Part shown: positions 7,550-62,152 of the stretch, one piece after another
Numbering within the stretch: the stretch's first letter is position 1
Layout of the letters: each line of letters starts with the position of its first letter
Virus record (IMG/VR): IMGVR_UViG_3300017971_000004
Coordinates: 1 to 64,000 of that record
Source: a virus
Lineage: Duplodnaviria; Heunggongvirae; Uroviricota; Caudoviricetes
DNA: 64,000 nucleotides
Direction: 5' to 3' (one strand)
Translations under genes and position numbers: made by a program
The notes under the pieces: generated by a model
The model's input: the letters and a program-made list of their open reading frames with translations, nothing else
Database searches by the model: none
Told to the model about the DNA's origin: nothing

Positions 7550-8215
7550 CTACAGGAAGATACCTTCGATCTTCAGATCGCAGGTACCGGCGGTTCCGCT
7601 GTCGGCCCCGGCAACACCGACGTACAGCGTGGCGTTGTCGTCCACCGTGGCAATCGCCGTCGTGGTGACATCGATCTCCTTGACGATAGCCTCGCCGACA
7701 CCGACCGCCCCGAGACCCGTGAGAGCCGCAGCGTTGAGCCACTGCGTGCCGCCGGTCGAGGTTCCCAGATTGAGCGTGGCATCCCCGACCAAGGCAGTCG
7801 CGGAGCGGCAAATTGCGGTGGCGCGGAGCGGCAGGAACTTCTGGCTGCCATCACCCGGCAGGTTCACGGTCCACTCCGTGACCGCATCCTTCAGATCGAT
7901 GCCCTGGACGATGACCGAGGCGATACCCTCGGCCATGTCCGCCACGCCGTCCGAGTCCAGATCGAACAAGGTGCCGTTCTGGATCGCCGACATCTGGGAA
8001 GCAGTCAGGATGCGACCGCTCGCGTTGCCCACGCGGACCCGGATCTTGTTGTTGGTGATGAAGGTCGCACAGTCTTCGCAGAACTGCTTGTTGCCGAGCA
8101 CGTCCTTCACGTCGACGGTCGCGCTGGAAGCGCCGACGATCTTGACGTTCGGAAGACCTTCGTCCCCCGAAATGCTGATGTTCCCCGAAGTCAGACCCTC
8201 GATGTAGAGATTCAT
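7550..8215 (-). CDS. putative virion structural protein (221 aa)
   Basis: Strong AAGGAGAG RBS and an upstream TGATATACT extended -10-like element (8263..8278); A/G/T-rich beta-type composition; sits next to terminase. Confidence 0.5.
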   Translation of the reverse strand: MNLYIEGLTSGNISISGDEGLPNVKIVGASSATVDVKDVLGNKQFCEDCATFITNNKIRVRVGNASGRILTASQMSAIQNGTLFDLDSDGVADMAEGIASVIVQGIDLKDAVTEWTVNLPGDGSQKFLPLRATAICRSATALVGDATLNLGTSTGGTQWLNAAALTGLGAVGVGEAIVKEIDVTTTAIATVDDNATLYVGVAGADSGTAGTCDLKIEGIFL

Positions 8216-8262
8216 TTTCGCTCTCCTTGCCGATCCTACCGGGAAGTCTCTCCCATGATTCC

Positions 8263-8278
8263 GCGCCAGTATATCATG
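8263..8278 (-). promoter_or_regulatory. sigma70-like extended -10 (TGATATACT) upstream of structural gene 7550..8215
   Basis: Minus-strand GATCATGATATACTGG followed ~45 nt later by AAGGAGAG RBS and ATG. Confidence 0.3.
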
Positions 8279-8314
8279 ATCATTTTGGCTTTTCTAAAAA
8301 TCGCCGAACTTGAC

Positions 8315-10567
8315 CTACCAGTTCGCCGGACCCCGGAAGTTCATGCCGACCATCGAGGTATCCGTGGCGACCTGGCGCTTCCGAACGGCCCGGCGCTTCT
8401 TGGTCTCGGCCAGCTCGTCGACGATGGAGTTCTGCACCAGCTGGTGGACGCCGATGTAGCAGCGGGCCAGGTCGTCCGAGTCGCGACCGCGCATCTTTCC
8501 CTTGTTGGGATTGTGGAACTTCCGCAGATCAGGAGTTCGAGAGAGCTTCAGAAGCTCCACCAGAGCCACGGAGCGGCCCTCCATCTGCTCCTGAGGCGTT
8601 CCTACGACCAGACTACCCTTGTCGGATAAACCGACCATATCGTCCGTCCTGGGGGCCAGCAGGCTCACCCTGCCGTTGTAGGTCATCCGGAGGAATCCCA
8701 TGAAGTGCTCGGGCTTGAGCGTGACCTTGGTGGCCATGATTCCCATCGTCCTGATCTGCTGGATGGTCGACTCGGAGTTCCAGCGGTCGAAGGCGATGGA
8801 GGCGATCCTGATCTTCTTGCGCAGCTGCTCGATGACATTGACCACCGAGTTGAACCAGATGTCGCGCTCGTTGGTCGGGACGATGCGCACGGCGAAATCG
8901 ATGACGGTGGCCATCATCTCGCCACGATGATCGTAGGGGATATTGCCGGACGGCATCGCCGAGAATGCGCGCATCATCCTGCGCTGCTCCTGCTGCGAGG
9001 AGATGATCATCGGCGCGTCGGCGGCGACCGCCATCCCGGATCCGAGATAAGTGCCCATGTCCTCGGCCAGGACCACGTCGAACGGGGTCACCGGCTCGAT
9101 GCGTCCACGACCCGTCCCGATCTTCGAGAGCTTGCGGTCACCGTTCTCATCCTCATCCCCCTCCTCTTCGAGGTCCTCGGCACTGATCCACTCGGGATGG
9201 GCGCAGACGAGCGCGAAGGAGTCCCAGCTCAGACCGGCGTCACCGAAAATGTAGTAGGTGTTGACCTGATCGAGCTGACAGCGGTCCAAATCGATGCCGA
9301 CGTACTGCTTGCCAGTGGCGTCGTTCAAGTAGGTTTCGGCGAAGGTGGCGATGGGCTCCCTCTCCCAGTCGATGCTCTTCCAGAACCGGAGCGGATCATC
9401 GACGTAAGGCATGTCGGCATTCGGAGGAGAGGCCCCGAAGTCGCGCTCTGCGGCGATGGGATCTTTCACGTACTCCTCGTCGAAGAGATGTCGAGGCATG
9501 TGCGGATTGAACTCCCAGGTCGCCCCCTTCCAGCCGTAGGTCTTCTTCAGCTCGCCGGCCTCGGCCTTGTAGTAGGTCTGCATGGCAGGGTCATCCTGGG
9601 CAAGCGGACTCGTGACGTTGATCATCAGGCCCAGGAACGAAGGGAGGTGGTTCAGCTCCTGCGAGGCCCTGACGGTCTTCAACGACTGGTTGAGCACGCG
9701 GTACAGCTCCTGCGCAGACCGGGTGCCCTCGGTGTCGACGAGACGCGCCCACTCATCGATGGAGGCCATGATCCTGGTCTTGCCAGCGATGCCCGCCGAG
9801 TCGGAGGCGATCCGGTTGAACCGGCACATCAGGTAACCGTCCAAGATGGCGTCGTCGTTGATACGATATTTCCACTTATCGACGGCGTTGCCGATCTGCT
9901 TCTTCTCCTCAGCCCGGACCCACTCCATGTACTTGCGAATCCACGGAGAATTGTTCCGCATTTCTCGATACTTGGCATAGATGGTCTGAGCTGCCTGAGT
10001 CGCAGTCGATGCGGCGAAGGTCACCTCGAACCACTCGGATCTCTCCTGTTTGAGCAGCCGCTGGAGCGCACCCCTGCTGTCAACGCCTCGGGTGATGAGG
10101 AAGTGCTCGAAGTAGCCTCCAATGTGTGCGCCTGTGAAGCTCTTGCCCGAGCGCATGCCGGCGATGACGATCATCTCGTTGTACGGCAACAGGATGGCGT
10201 CTTCGTAGAACTCGCGCTGGGTGCTGCGGCAGCGGGGGCAGACGAAGTCCTGCTCCGACTCATTCCAGACGAGCAGAGTCTCCGACTCCAGGTAGAGCCG
10301 ACTCTTGCCCCAACAATCGATGTCCTCCGGCTTCATCGAGTTGCAGATAGGGCAGCGCAGGTTGAAGACGTCGCGCAGGATCTGATACTGGCGACTGTGA
10401 TCGAACGTGCTCGGAACATTCCAGTAGTCGATACCGGTAATCCACTCAATGATGTTCGGAGCCGGCCTCCGCAGATATTCAACATCGATGTCACGCTCGC
10501 GGCTCTTGCCTTTGATGACGCCGTCGATTCGCGACGTCATGCGGTCGATGAACTCGTGATTACTCAT
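8315..10567 (-). CDS. terL: terminase large subunit (750 aa)
   Basis: Walker A VIAGMRSGKSF; N-terminal Cys4 (CPICN...CPRC); C-terminal acidic nuclease-type region (IFGDAGLSWDSFALVCAH). Size and order (ATPase then nuclease) typical of TerL. Confidence 0.8.
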   Translation of the reverse strand: MSNHEFIDRMTSRIDGVIKGKSRERDIDVEYLRRPAPNIIEWITGIDYWNVPSTFDHSRQYQILRDVFNLRCPICNSMKPEDIDCWGKSRLYLESETLLVWNESEQDFVCPRCRSTQREFYEDAILLPYNEMIVIAGMRSGKSFTGAHIGGYFEHFLITRGVDSRGALQRLLKQERSEWFEVTFAASTATQAAQTIYAKYREMRNNSPWIRKYMEWVRAEEKKQIGNAVDKWKYRINDDAILDGYLMCRFNRIASDSAGIAGKTRIMASIDEWARLVDTEGTRSAQELYRVLNQSLKTVRASQELNHLPSFLGLMINVTSPLAQDDPAMQTYYKAEAGELKKTYGWKGATWEFNPHMPRHLFDEEYVKDPIAAERDFGASPPNADMPYVDDPLRFWKSIDWEREPIATFAETYLNDATGKQYVGIDLDRCQLDQVNTYYIFGDAGLSWDSFALVCAHPEWISAEDLEEEGDEDENGDRKLSKIGTGRGRIEPVTPFDVVLAEDMGTYLGSGMAVAADAPMIISSQQEQRRMMRAFSAMPSGNIPYDHRGEMMATVIDFAVRIVPTNERDIWFNSVVNVIEQLRKKIRIASIAFDRWNSESTIQQIRTMGIMATKVTLKPEHFMGFLRMTYNGRVSLLAPRTDDMVGLSDKGSLVVGTPQEQMEGRSVALVELLKLSRTPDLRKFHNPNKGKMRGRDSDDLARCYIGVHQLVQNSIVDELAETKKRRAVRKRQVATDTSMVGMNFRGPANW

Positions 10568-11645: not shown

Positions 11646-11666
11646 ACTGATAATATACCAGACAGG

Positions 11667-12197: not shown

Positions 12198-12738
12198 CTG
12201 CTTCCATCCCGAGTAGGCTGCTCCACGGTATAGAATAGCACGACTCTTTTTGGAAAATCTAAGGACGCGACTCCCCCGAGCCAATCCGAGCCAATTCGAT
12301 CCAAGTTGAAAAAACCCTCTGATATACCCACCAACGATATCGAAAATCGAAGAACGAAATACATCGGGTTTGGAAAGACTTCCAAAATTCAACAAGATTT
12401 GCCAAGTTCTAACAACTCGATCCAATCTTGTTGTCTCACGACCATCCTGATCTGTATGAATCCAAGTCTACCAAGGCAAAGAATTCGGCATAGAGTTTCG
12501 AGAATCCTGACCGGAGTGAAGAATTCTGGAGCGTAGCGTAAGAATTCTGAACGTAGGGAAGGATTCGAAGAAACTCCTGCGGAAAACTTCGTTAACAGGT
12601 ACACTTTGGCGGTAATAATTCCGTTGAAGCTTTGAATCTTGGTGCCAGGAATCCCATCGATCCAAGACTTCCGGATGGCGGCGCATCGTATTACGATGTT
12701 ACTGAGGTTAGATCGTTAATATACAGGAACGGATCTTC
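12198..12738. other. 540-bp lower-GC non-coding island with iteron-like repeats
   Basis: Direct repeat CCGAGCCAAT x2 (12278..12297). TCGATCCAA at 12296, 12417 and 12657 (spacing ~120 and ~240 bp). 21-bp tandem AAGAATTCTG(G/A)A(G/A)CGTAG x2 (12519..12560), plus a third GAATTC at 12481. Only short, oddly composed ORFs on either strand. Confidence 0.5.
12714..12727 (-). promoter_or_regulatory. phage promoter-like motif CTGTATATTAAC
   Basis: Member of the recurring minus-strand motif family (see findings); sits at the upstream edge of the non-coding island. Confidence 0.35.
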
Positions 12739-12936
12739 CTACCGATCTTCTTTTTCGAAAAGTTGGATATGCTCGATGGCGAGCTGGATATGTACGGCTA
12801 TCTGGTTCTTGCAGTCCCCGTGAAGGACGCCGTCGAGGGCTTCGTGGAGATGTTTACGAGCTTTCTTCAACAGGTAGGATGGTCGCTCCCCAGTGACATC
12901 GTTCTTGGATCCATTCTTCGACGTATTCGATGACAT
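12739..12936 (-). CDS. hypothetical protein (65 aa)
   Basis: AGAGGAAG RBS 5 nt before ATG 12936. Overlaps 12854..13039 in another frame, so one of the two may be spurious. Confidence 0.3.
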   Translation of the reverse strand: MSSNTSKNGSKNDVTGERPSYLLKKARKHLHEALDGVLHGDCKNQIAVHIQLAIEHIQLFEKEDR

Positions 12937-14805: not shown

Positions 14806-14819
14806 ATGGTTAATATACA
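14806..14819 (-). promoter_or_regulatory. phage promoter-like motif CTGTATATTAACC
   Basis: 24 nt upstream of ATG 14784; lies between the stop of 14837..15406 and the GAGGAGG RBS. Confidence 0.4.
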
Positions 14820-14836
14820 GAGAAGCCGAGTTGAAC

Positions 14837-21578: not shown

Positions 21579-21637
21579 TTTGCCCTCCTTGATTCTGTCT
21601 ATATATCAAGAAGGGTGGGTTCTGTCAATATAGAAAG

Positions 21638-48198: not shown

Positions 48199-48668
48199 TG
48201 ACTCTCCACCTTCCGGGCAGTTGCCACGACGCCCTCCAGATCCTCCAGCCAGCGCGGGCTGAACTGAGAGACGAGGAACCAGTTCTCATCATCTTCAATA
48301 TACAGTTCAGCCACCATCCCCTTCCTACCATCTGGATCGAGAAGACGTTCGGTGAGCCGGATGCCAAAGATGCGCCCGGAGATCGTGATGTGCTTCTTCT
48401 TGAGAGGTAGGTAGCGTTCGGTCTCCCAGTCGTAGATACGCATGTCCGTGAAGATCTTCGGCAGTTCGACCGGAGGGGCCGTACCGCCCTTGAGGTCCCG
48501 GATCTCGTCTTCGAGCATCTCGACCTCGTCCTCCAGCTCCACGATGCGCTGCTGCTCTTCCTCCCGCTCGCACTCCCCGCAGAACCAGCGGTCTTCCTGA
48601 CCCTGGTACATGGAGTTGTCGCCGTGGTTGGTGATCCAGTCGCGCGGACACTTCGGCTTCTCGTTCAT
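48195..48668 (-). CDS. hypothetical protein (157 aa)
   Basis: Minus ORF; N-terminal CPRD...CGEC. Confidence 0.45.
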   Translation of the reverse strand: MNEKPKCPRDWITNHGDNSMYQGQEDRWFCGECEREEEQQRIVELEDEVEMLEDEIRDLKGGTAPPVELPKIFTDMRIYDWETERYLPLKKKHITISGRIFGIRLTERLLDPDGRKGMVAELYIEDDENWFLVSQFSPRWLEDLEGVVATARKVESQ

Positions 48669-57466: not shown

Positions 57467-58819
57467 TCAATCTTCCGTGAGCGCGGCCTCGACCTCGTCG
57501 AGCCTGAAACGTTGGAGACGGTCAGGACCCAGGTAGTGGACCGGAATGCTTCCTTGGTCCACCCACTTCTGTACCTTCTTCACGGTCGTCGAGAAGTGCT
57601 GTGCGATCGTTTCGATGTCAACAAACTTTCCCGGAGACACCGAAGGCGGAGCTGAAGAAGGTTCGTTCTCCGTCACCTCCTCCTGTTCCGGCTGCGAAGG
57701 AGGTTCAGACGGAACATCGAGGATCCGGATGATGGTTCTCCGATTCCTCCCCTTTCCGTTTTCGATCAACTTCGCGCCTCGCAGCTTTCGGAACACTCCG
57801 GTGACCGTGCTCAGGTGCAAACTCAACGCGGTGCCGAAGTCCGCAGCCCGGGTTGCAACGACATGAGAGGGGGACTTAGCTGCCTCCTTCCAGAGATAAA
57901 GCGCGACCTTGAGCACCGAGTCACCCCGAAGCTCCTGAACACGCTGGAACCACTCCCAAGGGAAGTCCTCGGCCCACTTGAAGTGATCGTCCGACAAAAC
58001 CGGAGGCACCTCCACCTGCTGCTCAGGAAGATCAACTTCTTTCGAGGGCGTCTTCTTTTTCGAAGATGCCTTTTTCGTAGGTACAGACGGTTCCTCGAAG
58101 GGAGCGATCTGGAGGTCCTGATCAGGATCCAACGCCTGCATGCGGATGAGATCCTGAGCCGCCTGGAAGTCGATTGCCACGGTCGACGATCTCCGAGAAG
58201 AGCGTCCGGGAATGTGCAACGACGCCGCGTAGTGCTTGGTATTCTTGAACTTCCCGTGAAAGGTGGGATAAAGAATCTTCACCGCATCCGCGACGTCCTG
58301 TAGAAGATACGGCTTCGCTTCGGGAAGGGTGTTGTCCGGCAGCAACTTGCACTTACTGATCGCCTTCTTCACATCTTCGACCTTGAAGAACGCGGTGGCG
58401 AAGTCAGGATCCAAAGGCCTGTGCCGCTCCCGAAGTCCGCAGTAGAACGCGAGATGGCAGACCATGTCCCGAGTGAGCTTCGTCTCTTGAAGCAGCTCCT
58501 TCAAAGGGAGCCAAGCCGTATCTTTGAGATCCGCGAGCCCGTACTTCTGGAGAACGGCGCTCAGATCTTGCGCCGAGATTTCCTGAACTTCGGGAAGCGT
58601 GTCAGGGGGGTAACCGTCTCCCGTCCCGGGGGGCGCAGCATCAGGCACAGGCGGCGTGACTGCTTCTCCGATCGGCTGCCCTATACCCAACGAAGGAGGA
58701 GCCTGTGCAGGAACAGGAGGGAGTTCCGCTTTCTGCTCCGGGTTATCCTGGGTGTTGTCACTCTCGGGGTTGTTCTGGTCTCGATTCTTTTCATCTTCGG
58801 ACATCTCGTACTCCTCCAT
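57467..58819 (-). CDS. DNA-binding protein with winged-helix and C-terminal excisionase-type HTH (450 aa)
   Basis: C-terminal FVDIETIAQHFSTTVKKVQKWVDQGSIPVHYLGPDRLQRFRLDEVEAAL (HTH_17-like); acidic/Pro-rich low-complexity N-terminus. Lies immediately downstream of the CRISPR array. Confidence 0.5.
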   Translation of the reverse strand: MEEYEMSEDEKNRDQNNPESDNTQDNPEQKAELPPVPAQAPPSLGIGQPIGEAVTPPVPDAAPPGTGDGYPPDTLPEVQEISAQDLSAVLQKYGLADLKDTAWLPLKELLQETKLTRDMVCHLAFYCGLRERHRPLDPDFATAFFKVEDVKKAISKCKLLPDNTLPEAKPYLLQDVADAVKILYPTFHGKFKNTKHYAASLHIPGRSSRRSSTVAIDFQAAQDLIRMQALDPDQDLQIAPFEEPSVPTKKASSKKKTPSKEVDLPEQQVEVPPVLSDDHFKWAEDFPWEWFQRVQELRGDSVLKVALYLWKEAAKSPSHVVATRAADFGTALSLHLSTVTGVFRKLRGAKLIENGKGRNRRTIIRILDVPSEPPSQPEQEEVTENEPSSAPPSVSPGKFVDIETIAQHFSTTVKKVQKWVDQGSIPVHYLGPDRLQRFRLDEVEAALTED

Positions 58820-58917
58820 GTCGTGGCTCGGTTGTTCTCCGTTCTCGACCTCGCGTACCTTCCTTGACCAGAGGAAGGGGAGTAGCTAGTTCCCGCGAAG
58901 TTCTCCTTTTCCACAAA

Positions 58918-58952
58918 CTCTTTCTCAACATACAGTGAACAGATCTCTCGAT
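58918..58952. repeat. left 35-bp inverted repeat flanking the CRISPR array
   Basis: ctctttctcaacatacagtgaacagatctctcgat; 32/35 identical to the reverse complement of 59866..59900. Confidence 0.8.
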
Positions 58953-58967
58953 GTCATGGACCGTGCT

Positions 58968-59730
58968 GTCGAGACTTCTAACCCGTCTCGCAGGGATTGA
59001 AGGATCGAACTCCCAAGATCTGGAGGCCCGCGATGCCGAAGTCGAGACTTCTAACCCGTCTCGCAGGGATTGAAGGGCGGTGCGGGTCCTATCATCGCTA
59101 CTTGGGACATCGGTGTCGAGACTTCTAACCCGTCTCGCAGGGATTGAAGGAAATGGAGTCCATCGAACCCAACATCGTCGAAATGTCGAGACTTCTAACC
59201 CGTCTCGCAGGGATTGAAGGTAACTAGACTGAGAATAGCTTGGTTATGTGAAATGCGTCGAGACTTCTAACCCGTCTCGCAGGGATTGAAGAAACGTGTT
59301 GAAAACGTGCTACGAGCCGGACAACATGTCGAGACTTCTAACCCGTCTCGCAGGGATTGAAGGGAAGCTACCGTCGCCTACGCGACCAGCGAGCCCATCT
59401 GTCGAGACTTCTAACCCGTCTCGCAGGGATTGAAGGATCGATAGCCGGGCGGCGCACGCCTCCGTTGCGCTGTCGAGACTTCTAACCCGTCTCGCAGGGA
59501 TTGAAGGCGGAGCGATCTCGCCGGGCAGTTCGAGCCACAACTCCGGGGGTCGAGACTTCTAACCCGTCTCGCAGGGATTGAAGGCGGTTTTCCGCCTCGG
59601 TACCCGAGGTCGGATCAAGATGTCGAGACTTCTAACCCGTCTCGCAGGGATTGAAGGGAGTGAAAAGATCGACGCCCTCTCGTGATGCTGCTTCGTCGAG
59701 ACTTCTAACCCGTCTCGCAGGGATTGAAGG
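58968..59730 (-). CRISPR. CRISPR array, 11 x 36-bp repeats, 10 spacers (34-41 bp)
   Basis: Plus-strand repeat GTCGAGACTTCTAACCCGTCTCGCAGGGATTGAAGG at 58968, 59041, 59115, 59185, 59257, 59328, 59401, 59472, 59549, 59622, 59695. All are identical except repeat 5, whose last G is A. Repeat contains a 6-bp hairpin CGAGAC/GTCTCG. Strand call is minus because the hairpin then sits at the 3' end of the repeat next to the spacer, and the array is co-directional with the cas12-like gene. Confidence 0.9.
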
Positions 59731-59865
59731 GGCGCGTTCCGCGACTTCAATGATCGCGGCGAGATAACCACCCGATTTCGAGCGGTCCGTTTTTCGCTCG
59801 AACGCGCTCCCGATTTTTTCAATCATTTCGAACGATGAACTCCTCCACCGATCCACCGCTCGAAA

Positions 59866-59900
59866 ATCGAGAGATCTGTTCACTGCATGTTGTCAAAGAG
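59866..59900. repeat. right 35-bp inverted repeat flanking the CRISPR array
   Basis: atcgagagatctgttcactgcatgttgtcaaagag; ends 11 nt before the cas12-like stop codon. Confidence 0.8.
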
Positions 59901-59911
59901 CTTTCGAACTT

Positions 59912-62110
59912 CTAAGACTCTAGAGGAGCCGGGCCTTCGCCGTTCCGCTCCTCTTCTTCCTTTTTCCGCTTCCGAACGACTTTCTTCCCCTTGTTCCGGT
60001 TCTTCTGAGCGTCCGACATCTCCCGCACGAGCACGCTGCCATCGGCTATCTTGACGATCTTGTTCTCTCGGTACAGCCGCATCATGTTCCGGGCCGCGTT
60101 CGCGTCCTGGTCCCAGGTGCGACCGCACTTCTCGCAGGTGTGCTCCACCTTCGGAATCGGGTCCCAGGGCGCATCGTGCCCGCAGTCGAAGCAGCGCTGG
60201 GTGGTCATGGCCGGGTTCACCCAGACGACCGTGCCGCCACGCGAGAGGAACGCCTGGATGAGCGTCTCGCGGAACTCGGAGAGCGCCGCTTCTTTCTGCT
60301 GCCGCCGCGCCCGCCGGATCTCGACCTTGTCGCTTCCCGGAAGCTCATGCTTCTGCATCTTGCTCAGATCGATATTTTCGAGCACGAGGACCTTGAACTC
60401 CCGCGCCAGCGCAGAGTCCACGCACCGGTAGTGATCCTCGCGCTGCAACAGCGACTTGCGCCGCTGGCTCTCCTGCCACTGCCAGAGGTGCCGGTCGCCG
60501 CCTTCGAGACGCCGCGCCTCCTCGTCGTAGACGCCTCGCTGCCAGCGGTCCAGGATCTCGAAGCCCCGTTCGTCCCCCTTCCACCGCGACTCCCTCCAGA
60601 GCCGCAGCAGCCACGCGAACCGCTTGGGGGCCTCCCACTTGGCGATGCCCCGGGTCGACTCCCTGAACCACTTCGGCAGCGCGCTGCGCCGCGCCTTGAT
60701 CCACGCCCGAAGCTCGGCCAGCATTTCGTTCTGCTTCAGCTGCCGGGTCTGCTGGAGCGTTTCGACGCGCTGGAACCCGGCGACCACCTTCGACGACATG
60801 CACTGCTCGTGGCCCACCTCACCCTCGTCCGGGTTCTTAAGATAGGCGGCGTACTCTCGATCATCGATCAGGTACGCGATCCGGATTCGGGGCACCTCCA
60901 CCTCCTGCTTCCGCAGCCCCCGCTTCTTCCGCTTCCTACCCATCTCCACCGTCTCGGTCCCTCGCTTGCGCCAACCGATATCGACGGCCACGACCCCGCG
61001 CCCCGTCCCGTAGTCCTTGTGACAATCCCCCGAATCCACCTCCAGATGGAGGTGCAACGTCCACCGGAGCCGGGTGGTGATCTTCTCCCGCTTCACGACC
61101 GCCCACTTGATGCGCGCCTTCGGAGGCAGCGGACGATGCATGATCACTGGGAACTCCGCCCAGATGGGATCACGACCGCTCTTTCCGCCGCTGCCGACCC
61201 GGATTCGAGCGATGCCGCGTCGACGTATCCTCCGATGCCGGAGCACCTCCTCCCCCATCTCGGGCTCCATGTCCAGCTGGAACATGGTGTTCTGGCAGTT
61301 CAGGACGCGCTCGACGGAATCCCCCTTCTGGAGTTCGACGCCGAAGATCACCTCATCATCGAGACTCTTGAACTTGGGGTCTCGCTCGACCCAGATGCCC
61401 TTCTCCTCGTTCCACTTCCAGAGGCTGTCCCTCAGCGACATCCGAGAAGCCTCCCGCGCCCTGTTCACCAGGAGATAGGTCCCCCAGTAGAGCTTCCCCA
61501 GCTCCTCGTCCGTCTCGGTCACCTTCTCGTAGGTTCCATCCTTGAATTGCACGTAGGCTTCGTGCAACTCCTGCTTCTCCCGCTGCTGGGCTTCCGCGCG
61601 CCGAGCCTTCAACTCGTCGCTTAACTCCACCTTCTTCCTCGGCTCCTCCTTCCCCGGCTCGTCGTCCGACTCGGAACCGTTCTTCAACTCCCGCAGCTTT
61701 GCCCACGCCTCGTTCTTGAGATCGCGCACCTCCCGGAGACGCATCCGCTCCTGCGGGGTGTCGGACCGGGATCGAGACCTCTTGCGCTTCGTCCTGAGAT
61801 CCTCCTGCATCTCCCGGAGGAGCTTTTCGAGACGCTTGACCTCGGTGAAGGCTTCCCGCATCTCGTCGCTCGCCCCCATCAGGTCCAGAGTGTGCTGCTG
61901 GTAGATTTCCCGAAGAGTCGCCCGCAGACGACGCTCCGCCTCCACACACTGGTTGTTGTACCGCTGCGACAGGACGATCTGCTTCTCCACCAGTTCGGCG
62001 TTCTTCGTCGGACCGAACGGCAGCCCATACACATAGGCGAGCTGGGGACCTCGGACCCTCGGCTTGCCCGGCTTCTTCTTCCGTTTCGTCTTCGATGTCT
62101 TGCGCGTCAT
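59912..62110 (-). CDS. cas12: Cas12-family (TnpB-derived) type V CRISPR effector candidate (732 aa)
   Basis: RuvC-I GVVAVDIGWRKRG; RuvC-II VLVLENIDLSKMQK; Zn ribbon CFDCGHDAPW...HTCEKCGRT followed by RuvC-III WDQDANAARNMM (compare ISDra2 TnpB AGVDVGI / IGTEHLKPDNM / CHDCG...CPNCGETHDRDENAALNI). N-terminal TnpB-like segment QLAYVYGLPFGPTKNAELVEKQIVLSQRYNNQC. A K/R/E-rich coiled-coil insertion of ~300 aa gives Cas12 size. Directly abuts the CRISPR array. GGGAGA RBS plus the CTTGTATATTAAC motif upstream. Confidence 0.75.
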   Translation of the reverse strand: MTRKTSKTKRKKKPGKPRVRGPQLAYVYGLPFGPTKNAELVEKQIVLSQRYNNQCVEAERRLRATLREIYQQHTLDLMGASDEMREAFTEVKRLEKLLREMQEDLRTKRKRSRSRSDTPQERMRLREVRDLKNEAWAKLRELKNGSESDDEPGKEEPRKKVELSDELKARRAEAQQREKQELHEAYVQFKDGTYEKVTETDEELGKLYWGTYLLVNRAREASRMSLRDSLWKWNEEKGIWVERDPKFKSLDDEVIFGVELQKGDSVERVLNCQNTMFQLDMEPEMGEEVLRHRRIRRRGIARIRVGSGGKSGRDPIWAEFPVIMHRPLPPKARIKWAVVKREKITTRLRWTLHLHLEVDSGDCHKDYGTGRGVVAVDIGWRKRGTETVEMGRKRKKRGLRKQEVEVPRIRIAYLIDDREYAAYLKNPDEGEVGHEQCMSSKVVAGFQRVETLQQTRQLKQNEMLAELRAWIKARRSALPKWFRESTRGIAKWEAPKRFAWLLRLWRESRWKGDERGFEILDRWQRGVYDEEARRLEGGDRHLWQWQESQRRKSLLQREDHYRCVDSALAREFKVLVLENIDLSKMQKHELPGSDKVEIRRARRQQKEAALSEFRETLIQAFLSRGGTVVWVNPAMTTQRCFDCGHDAPWDPIPKVEHTCEKCGRTWDQDANAARNMMRLYRENKIVKIADGSVLVREMSDAQKNRNKGKKVVRKRKKEEEERNGEGPAPLES

Positions 62111-62137: not shown

Positions 62138-62152
62138 GTTAATATACAAGAA
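62138..62152 (-). promoter_or_regulatory. phage promoter-like motif CTTGTATATTAAC upstream of the cas12-like gene
   Basis: 27 nt upstream of ATG 62110, in the 80-bp intergenic gap. Confidence 0.4.

Follow-up and report, generated by a model that had tools for sequence, protein, structure and literature searches.

An inverted repeat around the leader and CRISPR array of a Cas12m-like locus in a jumbo phage

Cas12m, the effector of type V-M CRISPR systems, is guided by crRNA alone, is reported to process its own pre-crRNA, and binds DNA without cleaving it. Type V-M loci combine a Cas12m homologue with an array that lies directly downstream on the same strand and whose 36-nt repeats carry a hairpin at the 3' end, and the phage locus described here has the same effector homology and array layout. 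However, the phage protein is larger than the solved Cas12m proteins (732 aa versus approximately 580-615 aa), and the locus differs from known type V-M loci in being located on a 188-kb phage contig and in having its leader and array bracketed by an inverted repeat, an arrangement seen in no relative. The RNase III stalks of rRNA operons and the sites in T7 polycistronic mRNA resemble this bracket in that the flanks of a non-coding RNA are complementary over more than 20 bp, and a helix of 27 bp is a standard RNase III substrate. To our knowledge, no CRISPR system is known in which an entire array is excised by means of flanking complementarity. A search of the literature returned no description of array-bracketing inverted repeats or of RNase III stalks around arrays, and its match on inverted-repeat flanks was a 30-kb invertible region in cyanophages. 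In type VI systems, hairpins formed between leader and repeat block extraneous crRNAs (PMC13187072).

Organization of the phage locus

The DNA analyzed is a stretch of 64,000 nucleotides, referred to as the window. It is phage DNA, with genes for a helicase, the large subunit of the terminase, and proteins of the tail fibre and baseplate. Contigs of up to 188.5 kb carry the identical Cas protein. The main features of the CRISPR locus are as follows:

57467..58819, minus strand: next gene after the array, 450 aa, or 445 aa from the ATG at 58804, with weak HTH hits
58968..59730, minus strand: CRISPR array, made up of 11 repeats (36 nt each) and 10 spacers (34-41 nt)
59731..59865, minus strand: 135-nt leader of the array, with a homologous counterpart in the closest relative (L008)
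59912..62110, minus strand: gene of the cas12m-like effector (732 aa); the protein has a zinc-ribbon TNB domain at its C-terminus and the D/E/D triad of RuvC
62141..62148, minus strand: promoter-like TGTATATT, with a -10-like TATATT, preceding the cas12m-like ATG by about 30 nt

When compared with solved structures, the effector matches Cas12m best (PDB 23vw_A, E=3.5e-47), followed by Cas12m2 (8hhl, E=3.4e-11), and its Pfam match is to Cas12f1-like_TNB (PF07282, 1.1e-13). Residues E578, D667/D669 and C643/C659/C662 (CxxC pairs) are invariant across six relatives. Based on effector homology and layout, we assign the locus to the type V-M (Cas12m) kind.

The array starts 182 nt past the cas stop codon and is co-oriented with cas12m. 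Its repeat, which reads CCTTCAATCCCTGCGAGACGGGTTAGAAGTCTCGAC on the minus strand, carries a hairpin at the 3' end, as in type V systems with a 5' handle. From the position of this hairpin, the location of the leader on the cas side, and the related loci in which the array lies downstream of cas on the same strand, we infer that the array is read in the cas12m direction. The leader contains a conserved GGACCGCTCGAAATC (59774-59788) and a repeat-like hairpin (59777-59802). Neither the 10 spacers, nor the tail past the last repeat, nor the "pseudo-spacer" of the leader had an above-noise match in the window or in loci L001-L087, and self-targeting or regulatory spacers were rejected on this basis. 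Also rejected was an extraneous crRNA from the last repeat aimed at the right arm of the inverted repeat, since its match is limited to PAM-distal positions. The CRISPR locus, at approximately 1.1 kb, is the largest non-coding stretch of the window.

The promoter-like site at 62141..62148 is followed by an RBS-like GGGAGATTGAG and then by the ATG at 62110, and it is likely the start of a transcript running through cas12m and the array. All 31 genes called in the 16 kb around the locus on an independently assembled Logan contig of the same phage (SRR6963591, hereafter L002) are on the minus strand. HTH-like proteins are encoded by the next gene and also by a gene upstream, and no homologues of the 450-aa next-gene product were found outside this phage. 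The L002 assembly retains the leader and both arms of the inverted repeat but only one CRISPR repeat, which could be due to k-mer collapse or to a deletion between repeats.

A metagenome scan with an alignment of six relatives yielded 80 Cas12m-like loci. The array lies directly after the cas gene in nearly all of the 80, a layout common to the 46 with complete arrays, and in many relatives the first repeat is found only 4-20 nt past the cas stop codon. This spacing leaves no room for a separate promoter, so that co-transcription looks like the family norm and the array normally appears to form the 3' part of the cas12m transcript. Several of the approximately 80 Cas12m-like loci are located on phage contigs of 180-245 kb.

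The inverted repeat and the make-up of its arms

A repeat scan placed the arms at 58915-58952 and 59866-59903; each is 38 nt long, and they are complementary at 34 of 38 positions (89%) and lie 913 nt apart. The first-pass annotation had described slightly shorter 35-nt arms (58918-58952 and 59866-59900) complementary at 32/35 positions, a count that was reproduced on recomputing, and had proposed that these enclose exactly the array and its proximal region of about 135 bp; the 135-nt leader, 11 repeats and 10 spacers are indeed what lies inside. The arms and their parts are as follows:

58915..58952, minus strand: left arm, minus-strand reading ATCGAGAGATCTGTTCACTGTATGTTGAGAAAGAGTTT, the 3' arm in a read-through RNA and, as DNA, the putative promoter module of the next gene
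58927..58935, minus strand: left-arm promoter core CTGTATGTT, with a -10-like TATGTT at 58932-58927
58953..58967, minus strand: linker of 15 nt from the last repeat, which is intact, to the left arm
59866..59903, minus strand: right arm, minus-strand reading AAGCTCTTTGACAACATGCAGTGAACAGATCTCTCGAT, the 5' arm in a read-through RNA
59867..59888, minus strand: lineage-specific inner right arm, 22 nt, ATGCAGTGAACAGATCTCTCGA on the minus strand
59889..59902, minus strand: family-conserved leader-start motif AGCTCTTTGACAAC, the outer 14 nt of the right arm

The inverted repeat around the CRISPR array is real. The arm alignment has a score of 56, corresponding to z=20 against shuffled flanks, and the 20-nt core ATCGAGAGATCTGTTCACTG occurs in the window only at the two arm sites with up to 3 mismatches allowed (0.01 sites expected). 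The 64-kb window contains no second strong inverted repeat with arms up to 5 kb apart, the next best reaching 71-83%. Both arms are letter-identical in L002, which excludes an assembly artefact. A gap of 15 nt separates the last repeat from the left arm, and one of 8 nt separates the cas stop codon from the right arm; extension of the repeat past 38 nt, either toward the 3' end of cas12m or toward the array, is not significant (p=0.05-0.15 for the outer and inner flanks).

The left arm resembles the phage's own promoters. A recurring CTGTAT[A/G]TT motif, pointed out in the first-pass annotation, is present at five exact sites, all on the minus strand (0.11 expected), and its reported presence in both arms also holds, as CTGTATGTT on the minus strand of the left arm and CTGCATGTT on the plus strand of the right arm. 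In addition, all nine TATATT sites in the window and 9 of the 10 TGTAT[AG]T sites are on the minus strand, and at least six promoter-like sites, the one ahead of cas12m among them, sit roughly 25-40 nt ahead of a start codon. A reading of CTGTAT... as a LexA box was rejected for want of an ACAG partner at the proper spacing. In the left arm, the core is preceded by AGATCT, as is also the case at sites 12725 and 37520 (AGATCY element), and the TATGTT lies 107 nt ahead of the next-gene ATG. Given the family core, the AGATCY element and an orientation facing the gene at 57467-58819, the left arm is best read as the promoter module of that gene. The other promoters of this phage have little in common beyond the -10 core. 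The caveat that the repeats might be a generic intergenic element thus applies to the 8-9-nt promoter core, which is generic in this phage, but not to the 38-nt sequence, which is unique to the two arms.

The right arm is composed of two parts. Its outer 14 nt contain a leader-start motif, with the consensus (T)CTTTGA(C/A)AA(Y)nT(R), that begins about 10 nt past the cas stop codon here and is found 2-48 nt past the stop codons of approximately 11 distinct divergent Cas12m-like genes (25-47% identity). The loci concerned are L001, L003, L004, L008/9, L056, L080 and L081, with a TTGAAAA variant in L067/68/77, L072 and L078. Across both strands of 1.18 Mb of fetched loci, 14 of the 22 hits to the motif regex lie 2-48 nt past a cas stop codon on the cas strand, and TTTGACAA occurs once in the 64-kb window. 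From its recurrence and placement, we read this motif as a signal that is conserved in the family and tied to one position, the beginning of the array leader. The TTGACA within it was considered as the -35 element of a sigma-70 array promoter and rejected, since no -10-like hexamer is present at 16-19 nt in the 11 motif loci. The opposite strand of the motif, YAnRTT-GTCAAAGA, looks similar to the -10 used by the phage itself.

The inner part of the right arm (22 nt) repeats the left-arm promoter module as its reverse complement and is absent from L008, where it corresponds to a clean 22-column gap in an alignment of leaders that can otherwise be aligned over their whole length (75% column identity, and 15/15 at GGACCGCTCGAAATC). 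On the plus strand, the right arm reads CATGTT, with a C at the first -10 position, where all 10 minus-strand sites have a T; no TATATT site and no credible downstream gene are found on the plus strand at this arm. The arms differ at 4 of 38 positions, 3 of which lie within the 35-nt core, while the other 32 core positions are identical. These 3 core differences are located at the TTGACA of the leader motif and at the first -10 base, and at each of them the right arm holds the family motif (TTGACA) and the left arm holds the promoter consensus (TATGTT, TTGAGA). Three of the four arm differences thus sit where each arm fits its own DNA motif, a distribution that fits DNA-level constraints as well as RNA pairing. 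Overall, we take the inverted repeat to be an inverted duplication that is specific to this lineage and links two resident control elements, and not a pair of transposon ends.

A search for the same arrangement at related loci, as proposed in the first-pass annotation, was made by comparing the stretch between cas stop codon and array with the reverse complement of the 350 nt beyond the array in the 46 loci with complete arrays. None of the 45 other loci is bracketed (0/45), the best of them having z=2.7 versus 20 here. In database searches, the DNA from 58400 to 60400 had no match to public phage genomes in a distant-mode search, and exact scans of IMG/VR and of 185,579 GTDB genomes returned 0 hits for the arm core; exact scans for the CRISPR repeat likewise returned 0 hits in IMG/VR and the GTDB genomes, giving no clue to the host. 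Searches with the Cas protein and the downstream 450-aa protein recovered no relative above 47% identity except the same phage, and searches with neighbouring proteins recovered the same Logan contig or nothing, and hence no variants for a covariation test. For comparison, 653 kb of related sequence contained approximately 7 distinct inverted repeats whose arms measured at least 28 nt, were at least 85% identical and lay 60-3000 nt apart (about 1 per 90 kb).

RNA pairing and rival explanations

All elements from the promoter-like site at 62148 through cas12m, leader and array to the next gene are co-directional, and no terminator-like site was found on the minus strand between the cas stop codon and the left arm, except for a weak one inside a spacer. 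Because these elements share one direction with no terminator between them, the two arms would pair in a read-through RNA. Co-directional transcription of cas, array and next gene, and with it RNA pairing, was not part of the first-pass annotation. Both the minimum free energy and the centroid folds of the 1016-nt minus-strand RNA contain the long-range arm stem, in which the 38 positions are predicted to form 9 bp, a 2x2 internal loop and 27 bp, closing off the leader and array. The duplex is stronger on the minus strand (-57.6 kcal/mol) than on the plus strand (-50.0 kcal/mol), because the two transitions between the arms yield G·U on the transcribed strand, as against C·A on the opposite one. 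The most plausible effect of the repeat, according to these folding models, is that it would fold the read-through RNA into a long double-stranded stem.

As to what such a stem might do, the leading mechanism, to which we tentatively assign a probability of roughly 0.35, is an RNase III-type processing or insulating stalk. A read-through transcript initiated at the cas12m promoter would carry both arms, and the arm stem would serve, like the stalks of rRNA operons, to process or insulate the RNA. Cleavage of the stem by the host's RNase III would free a leader-array precursor from the cas12m mRNA and from the downstream RNA, and Cas12m itself would then dice this precursor into crRNAs. RNA initiated at the left-arm promoter would include only the last few nucleotides of the arm and would escape cleavage. 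That the phage would benefit from such a stalk is something that we infer. This mechanism is favoured by arms that are real, sharply bounded and unique, and that differ at only 4 of 38 positions when other promoters of the phage are alike in the -10 core only. Against it, the stem is not conserved in relatives, and the leader of L008 is without the inner right arm. The system works without a stalk, to judge from the relatives that have no bracket (0/45, and L008), and RNase III is not required, given that Cas12m-family effectors are reported to process their own pre-crRNA. It should also be noted that the leader's conserved GGACCGCTCGAA could point to an internal array promoter, in which case the transcripts arising there would be without the right arm, and that the G·U argument is based on two positions (p=0.25 by chance). 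The more specific proposal, in which the array and leader of the phage sit in an rRNA-operon-style stalk, RNase III excises the pre-crRNA and the 3' arm doubles as a DNA promoter, is possible but somewhat doubtful.

Two alternatives do without a processing function for the stem. Both are serious rivals, although we give each a somewhat lower probability than the stalk. In the first, the arms would be twin DNA regulatory sites, both copies of one promoter/operator module of the phage: the left arm would drive the next gene, the right arm would either fire weakly, as an antisense promoter, toward the 3' end of cas12m or offer the same factor another binding site, and the array, cas12m and next gene would come under coupled control, possibly through DNA looping. 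The left arm does fit the promoter family in both its core and the upstream AGATCY element, and the same promoter module is present on the plus strand of the right arm, although its first -10 position is the deviant C and the plus strand there offers neither a TATATT site nor a credible gene to transcribe. Just outside the right arm is a TCGAAAA, which is also found upstream of the promoters at 12758, 14850 and 29607 and of a plus-strand site at 2393, but at the right arm its spacing is 19 nt instead of 26-28 nt, and coding sequence often contains TCGAAAA. The HTH-like proteins of the next gene and of a gene upstream, as well as the resemblance of the opposite strand of the family motif to a -10 (YAnRTT), are also in keeping with twin sites. 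Promoter function, however, does not call for 34/38 identity, as the phage's other promoters are alike only in the core. Of similar probability, in our view, is the second, that the repeat is a functionless scar, left by a recent inverted duplication or template switch (quasi-palindrome correction) between two intergenic regions that began from a pre-existing short inverted similarity (CTCTTTGACAA versus TTGAGAAAGAG) and was tolerated in the largest non-coding stretch. The confinement of the bracket to one lineage and the inner right arm being an indel relative to the closest relative are what such an origin would leave, and, at about 1 comparable inverted repeat per 90 kb, finding one in 64 kb is not extraordinary; moreover, since both arms must be non-coding, bracketing of the array follows almost automatically. 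A neutral origin fits less well with the restriction of the 3 core differences to two functional motifs while 32 other positions are identical, and with the G·U form that both transitions take on the transcribed strand; a scar, too, would pair in the read-through RNA, with physical consequences.

Two further explanations invoke DNA rearrangement, of which an invertible switch is very unlikely. Recombination between the arms would flip the leader and array and turn crRNA production off or on, and inverted repeats of 35-38 bp around approximately 0.9 kb are geometrically like known invertible promoters and segments; once flipped, the array would be antisense to the cas12m transcript. On the other hand, both independent assemblies have the same orientation, the arrangement is found in no relative, and no recombinase Pfam family was detected among the 31 genes of the 16-kb L002 locus (about 4 kb upstream and 10 kb downstream of cas12m), most of which are without annotation. 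The mobile array cassette suggested in the first-pass annotation, in which the arms would be the terminal inverted repeats (TIRs) of a MITE-like or transposon-borne array, hardly retains any credibility, even though the arms have TIR-like geometry (38 nt, 89% complementary) and the effector descends from TnpB. The right arm holds the family leader motif at its usual position, and so is not foreign DNA, and the enclosed leader is homologous to that of the arm-less L008; we also know of no use of terminal inverted repeats by IS200/IS605-TnpB elements. The target-site duplication (TSD) that was to be looked for outside the arms is absent, no direct repeat being shared between ...TTCTCCTTTTCCAC on the left and TCGAACTTCTAAG... 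on the right. With no such duplication, arms that are single-copy in the window, IMG/VR and GTDB, brackets at 0/45 related loci, and arms built from resident motifs, the MITE or transposon reading was rejected. Nothing was found in support of a recombination site for array swapping, leaving duplicated regulatory elements as the sole survivor of the three options originally put forward.

Comparison with known systems

The architecture is real and unusual, but is found in one lineage only. If the repeat is only a scar, the value of the locus lies in the motif that follows cas12m, the leader element, the jumbo-phage promoter family and the approximately 80 Cas12m-like loci. Under either outcome, the idea of a transposable array cassette can be dropped. 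MITEs and TIR transposons likewise have inverted repeats, here of 35-38 bp, around approximately 0.9 kb without a protein-coding gene, but the phage arms have no TSD and no other copies and are made of resident regulatory motifs. In the fimS and Hin/Gin invertible segments, inverted repeats also flank approximately 1 kb with expression signals; unlike these, the phage locus has a single observed orientation, and no recombinase was found nearby, over the 16 kb of L002.

Closer parallels exist at the level of RNA. The type VI hairpin (PMC13187072) is comparable in that an RNA structure flanking the array shapes which crRNAs arise, and the left arm of the phage covers most of the guide of the extraneous crRNA expected from the intact last repeat. 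The type VI hairpin is local and includes the repeat, whereas the phage stem is long-range, excludes the repeats and involves both ends of the array. Functionally, our analysis suggests that the bracket most resembles the processing stalks of rRNA operons, but it is not conserved among the related loci, and for that reason we do not class it as an established element. Like the rRNA stalks, the phage stem of 9+27 bp is long-range, spanning approximately 950 nt; unlike them, it is a predicted stem, it encloses a CRISPR array, it is unconserved, and one of its arms doubles as a putative promoter. If the stalk is functional, the phage would insulate a guide-RNA cassette inside an operon, an arrangement that could aid the design of arrays in polycistronic constructs, and the locus would represent a new route to pre-crRNA, in which RNase III acts on the flanks of the array and not on duplexes between tracrRNA and repeat.

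Conserved elements around the array

The leader between the cas gene and the array carries an element, GGACC(G/T)CTCG(A/C)AA, that is present in at least 12 loci whose CRISPR repeats differ; it precedes the first repeat by approximately 40-60 nt. In the window, the 3' half of a hairpin that resembles a repeat (TTCGAGCG-N10-CGCTCGAA) consists of this element, which could act as an internal array promoter, mark a transcription start or function as a regulatory RNA of repeat-like form. The leader DNA of the window (59725-59915) is 75% identical to that of the closest relative, L008 (7918-8095), whereas the Cas proteins of this pair share only 47% identity, indicating that the leader is under stronger constraint than the effector.

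Leader element and hairpin
59774-59788, minus strand, window: leader element
59777-59802, minus strand, window: repeat-like hairpin
8032-8046, L008: leader element
Leaders of L011, L036-38, L044-46, L053 and L057: leader element

A second motif, (T)CTTTGA(C/A)AA(Y)nT(R), is specific in position, falling 2-48 nt past the stop codon of approximately 11 distinct, divergent Cas12m-like genes. When both strands of the 1.18 Mb of fetched loci were searched with a regular expression, this post-stop position accounted for 14 of the 22 matches. The sense strand of the motif resembles a -35 element, for which no -10 partner was found in the loci carrying it, and the antisense strand resembles a -10 element (YAnRTT).

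Post-stop motif, right after the cas stop codon
59889-59902, minus strand, window
7809-7822, L001
7939-7951, L008
L003, L004, L056, L067, L072, L078, L080 and L081

Variation in arrays and flanking repeats

The terminal repeat of the window array (58968-59003) is intact, which would allow an 'extraneous' crRNA. Such a crRNA could carry a guide spanning the linker and left arm (58915-58967), the region read as the promoter of the gene that follows, and in read-through RNA the predicted stem would sequester most of this guide. In the independent Logan assembly of the same phage (L002, SRR6963591; 6158-6440), a single repeat remains of the array while the leader and both arms are intact, reflecting either an assembly collapse at k=31 or a real repeat-repeat deletion variant. 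L001 carries an array of approximately 35 repeats (7841-10295) downstream of its Cas12m-like gene. These repeats are heterogeneous, with compensatory changes in their hairpin stems (GGGAT/ATCCC, GAGAC/GTCTC, GGGAC/GTCCC), and one effector may serve several repeat families.

A perfect 97-nt inverted repeat also occurs at L073 (6118-6214 and 8383-8479), its first arm starting where a Cas12m/TnpB-like gene has its stop codon and its second lying at the contig end. No CRISPR array is present between these arms; the structure may be an IS-like element or may have arisen by fold-back during assembly.

Promoter-like sites of the phage and genomic setting

The promoter-like family TATATT / TGTATATT is found exclusively on the minus strand of the window, and three promoter-like sites have TCGAAAA(A)GA in common as an element upstream of them. 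The hexamer at 11657 precedes an ATG by only 6 nt, suggesting a leaderless mRNA.

TATATT / TGTATATT sites, minus strand
11652-11657, 12718-12726, 14812-14820, 21627-21632
29567-29572, 37513-37521, 48297-48305, 62141-62148

Contigs of 180-245 kb repeatedly carry a Cas12m-like effector and an array, with adaptation genes absent nearby: the viral contig L001 (205 kb), L008 (192 kb), L012 (180 kb), L070 (184 kb), L083 (245 kb) and the window's own contig (188.5 kb). This recurrence suggests a jumbo-phage clade carrying this DNA-binding type V system.
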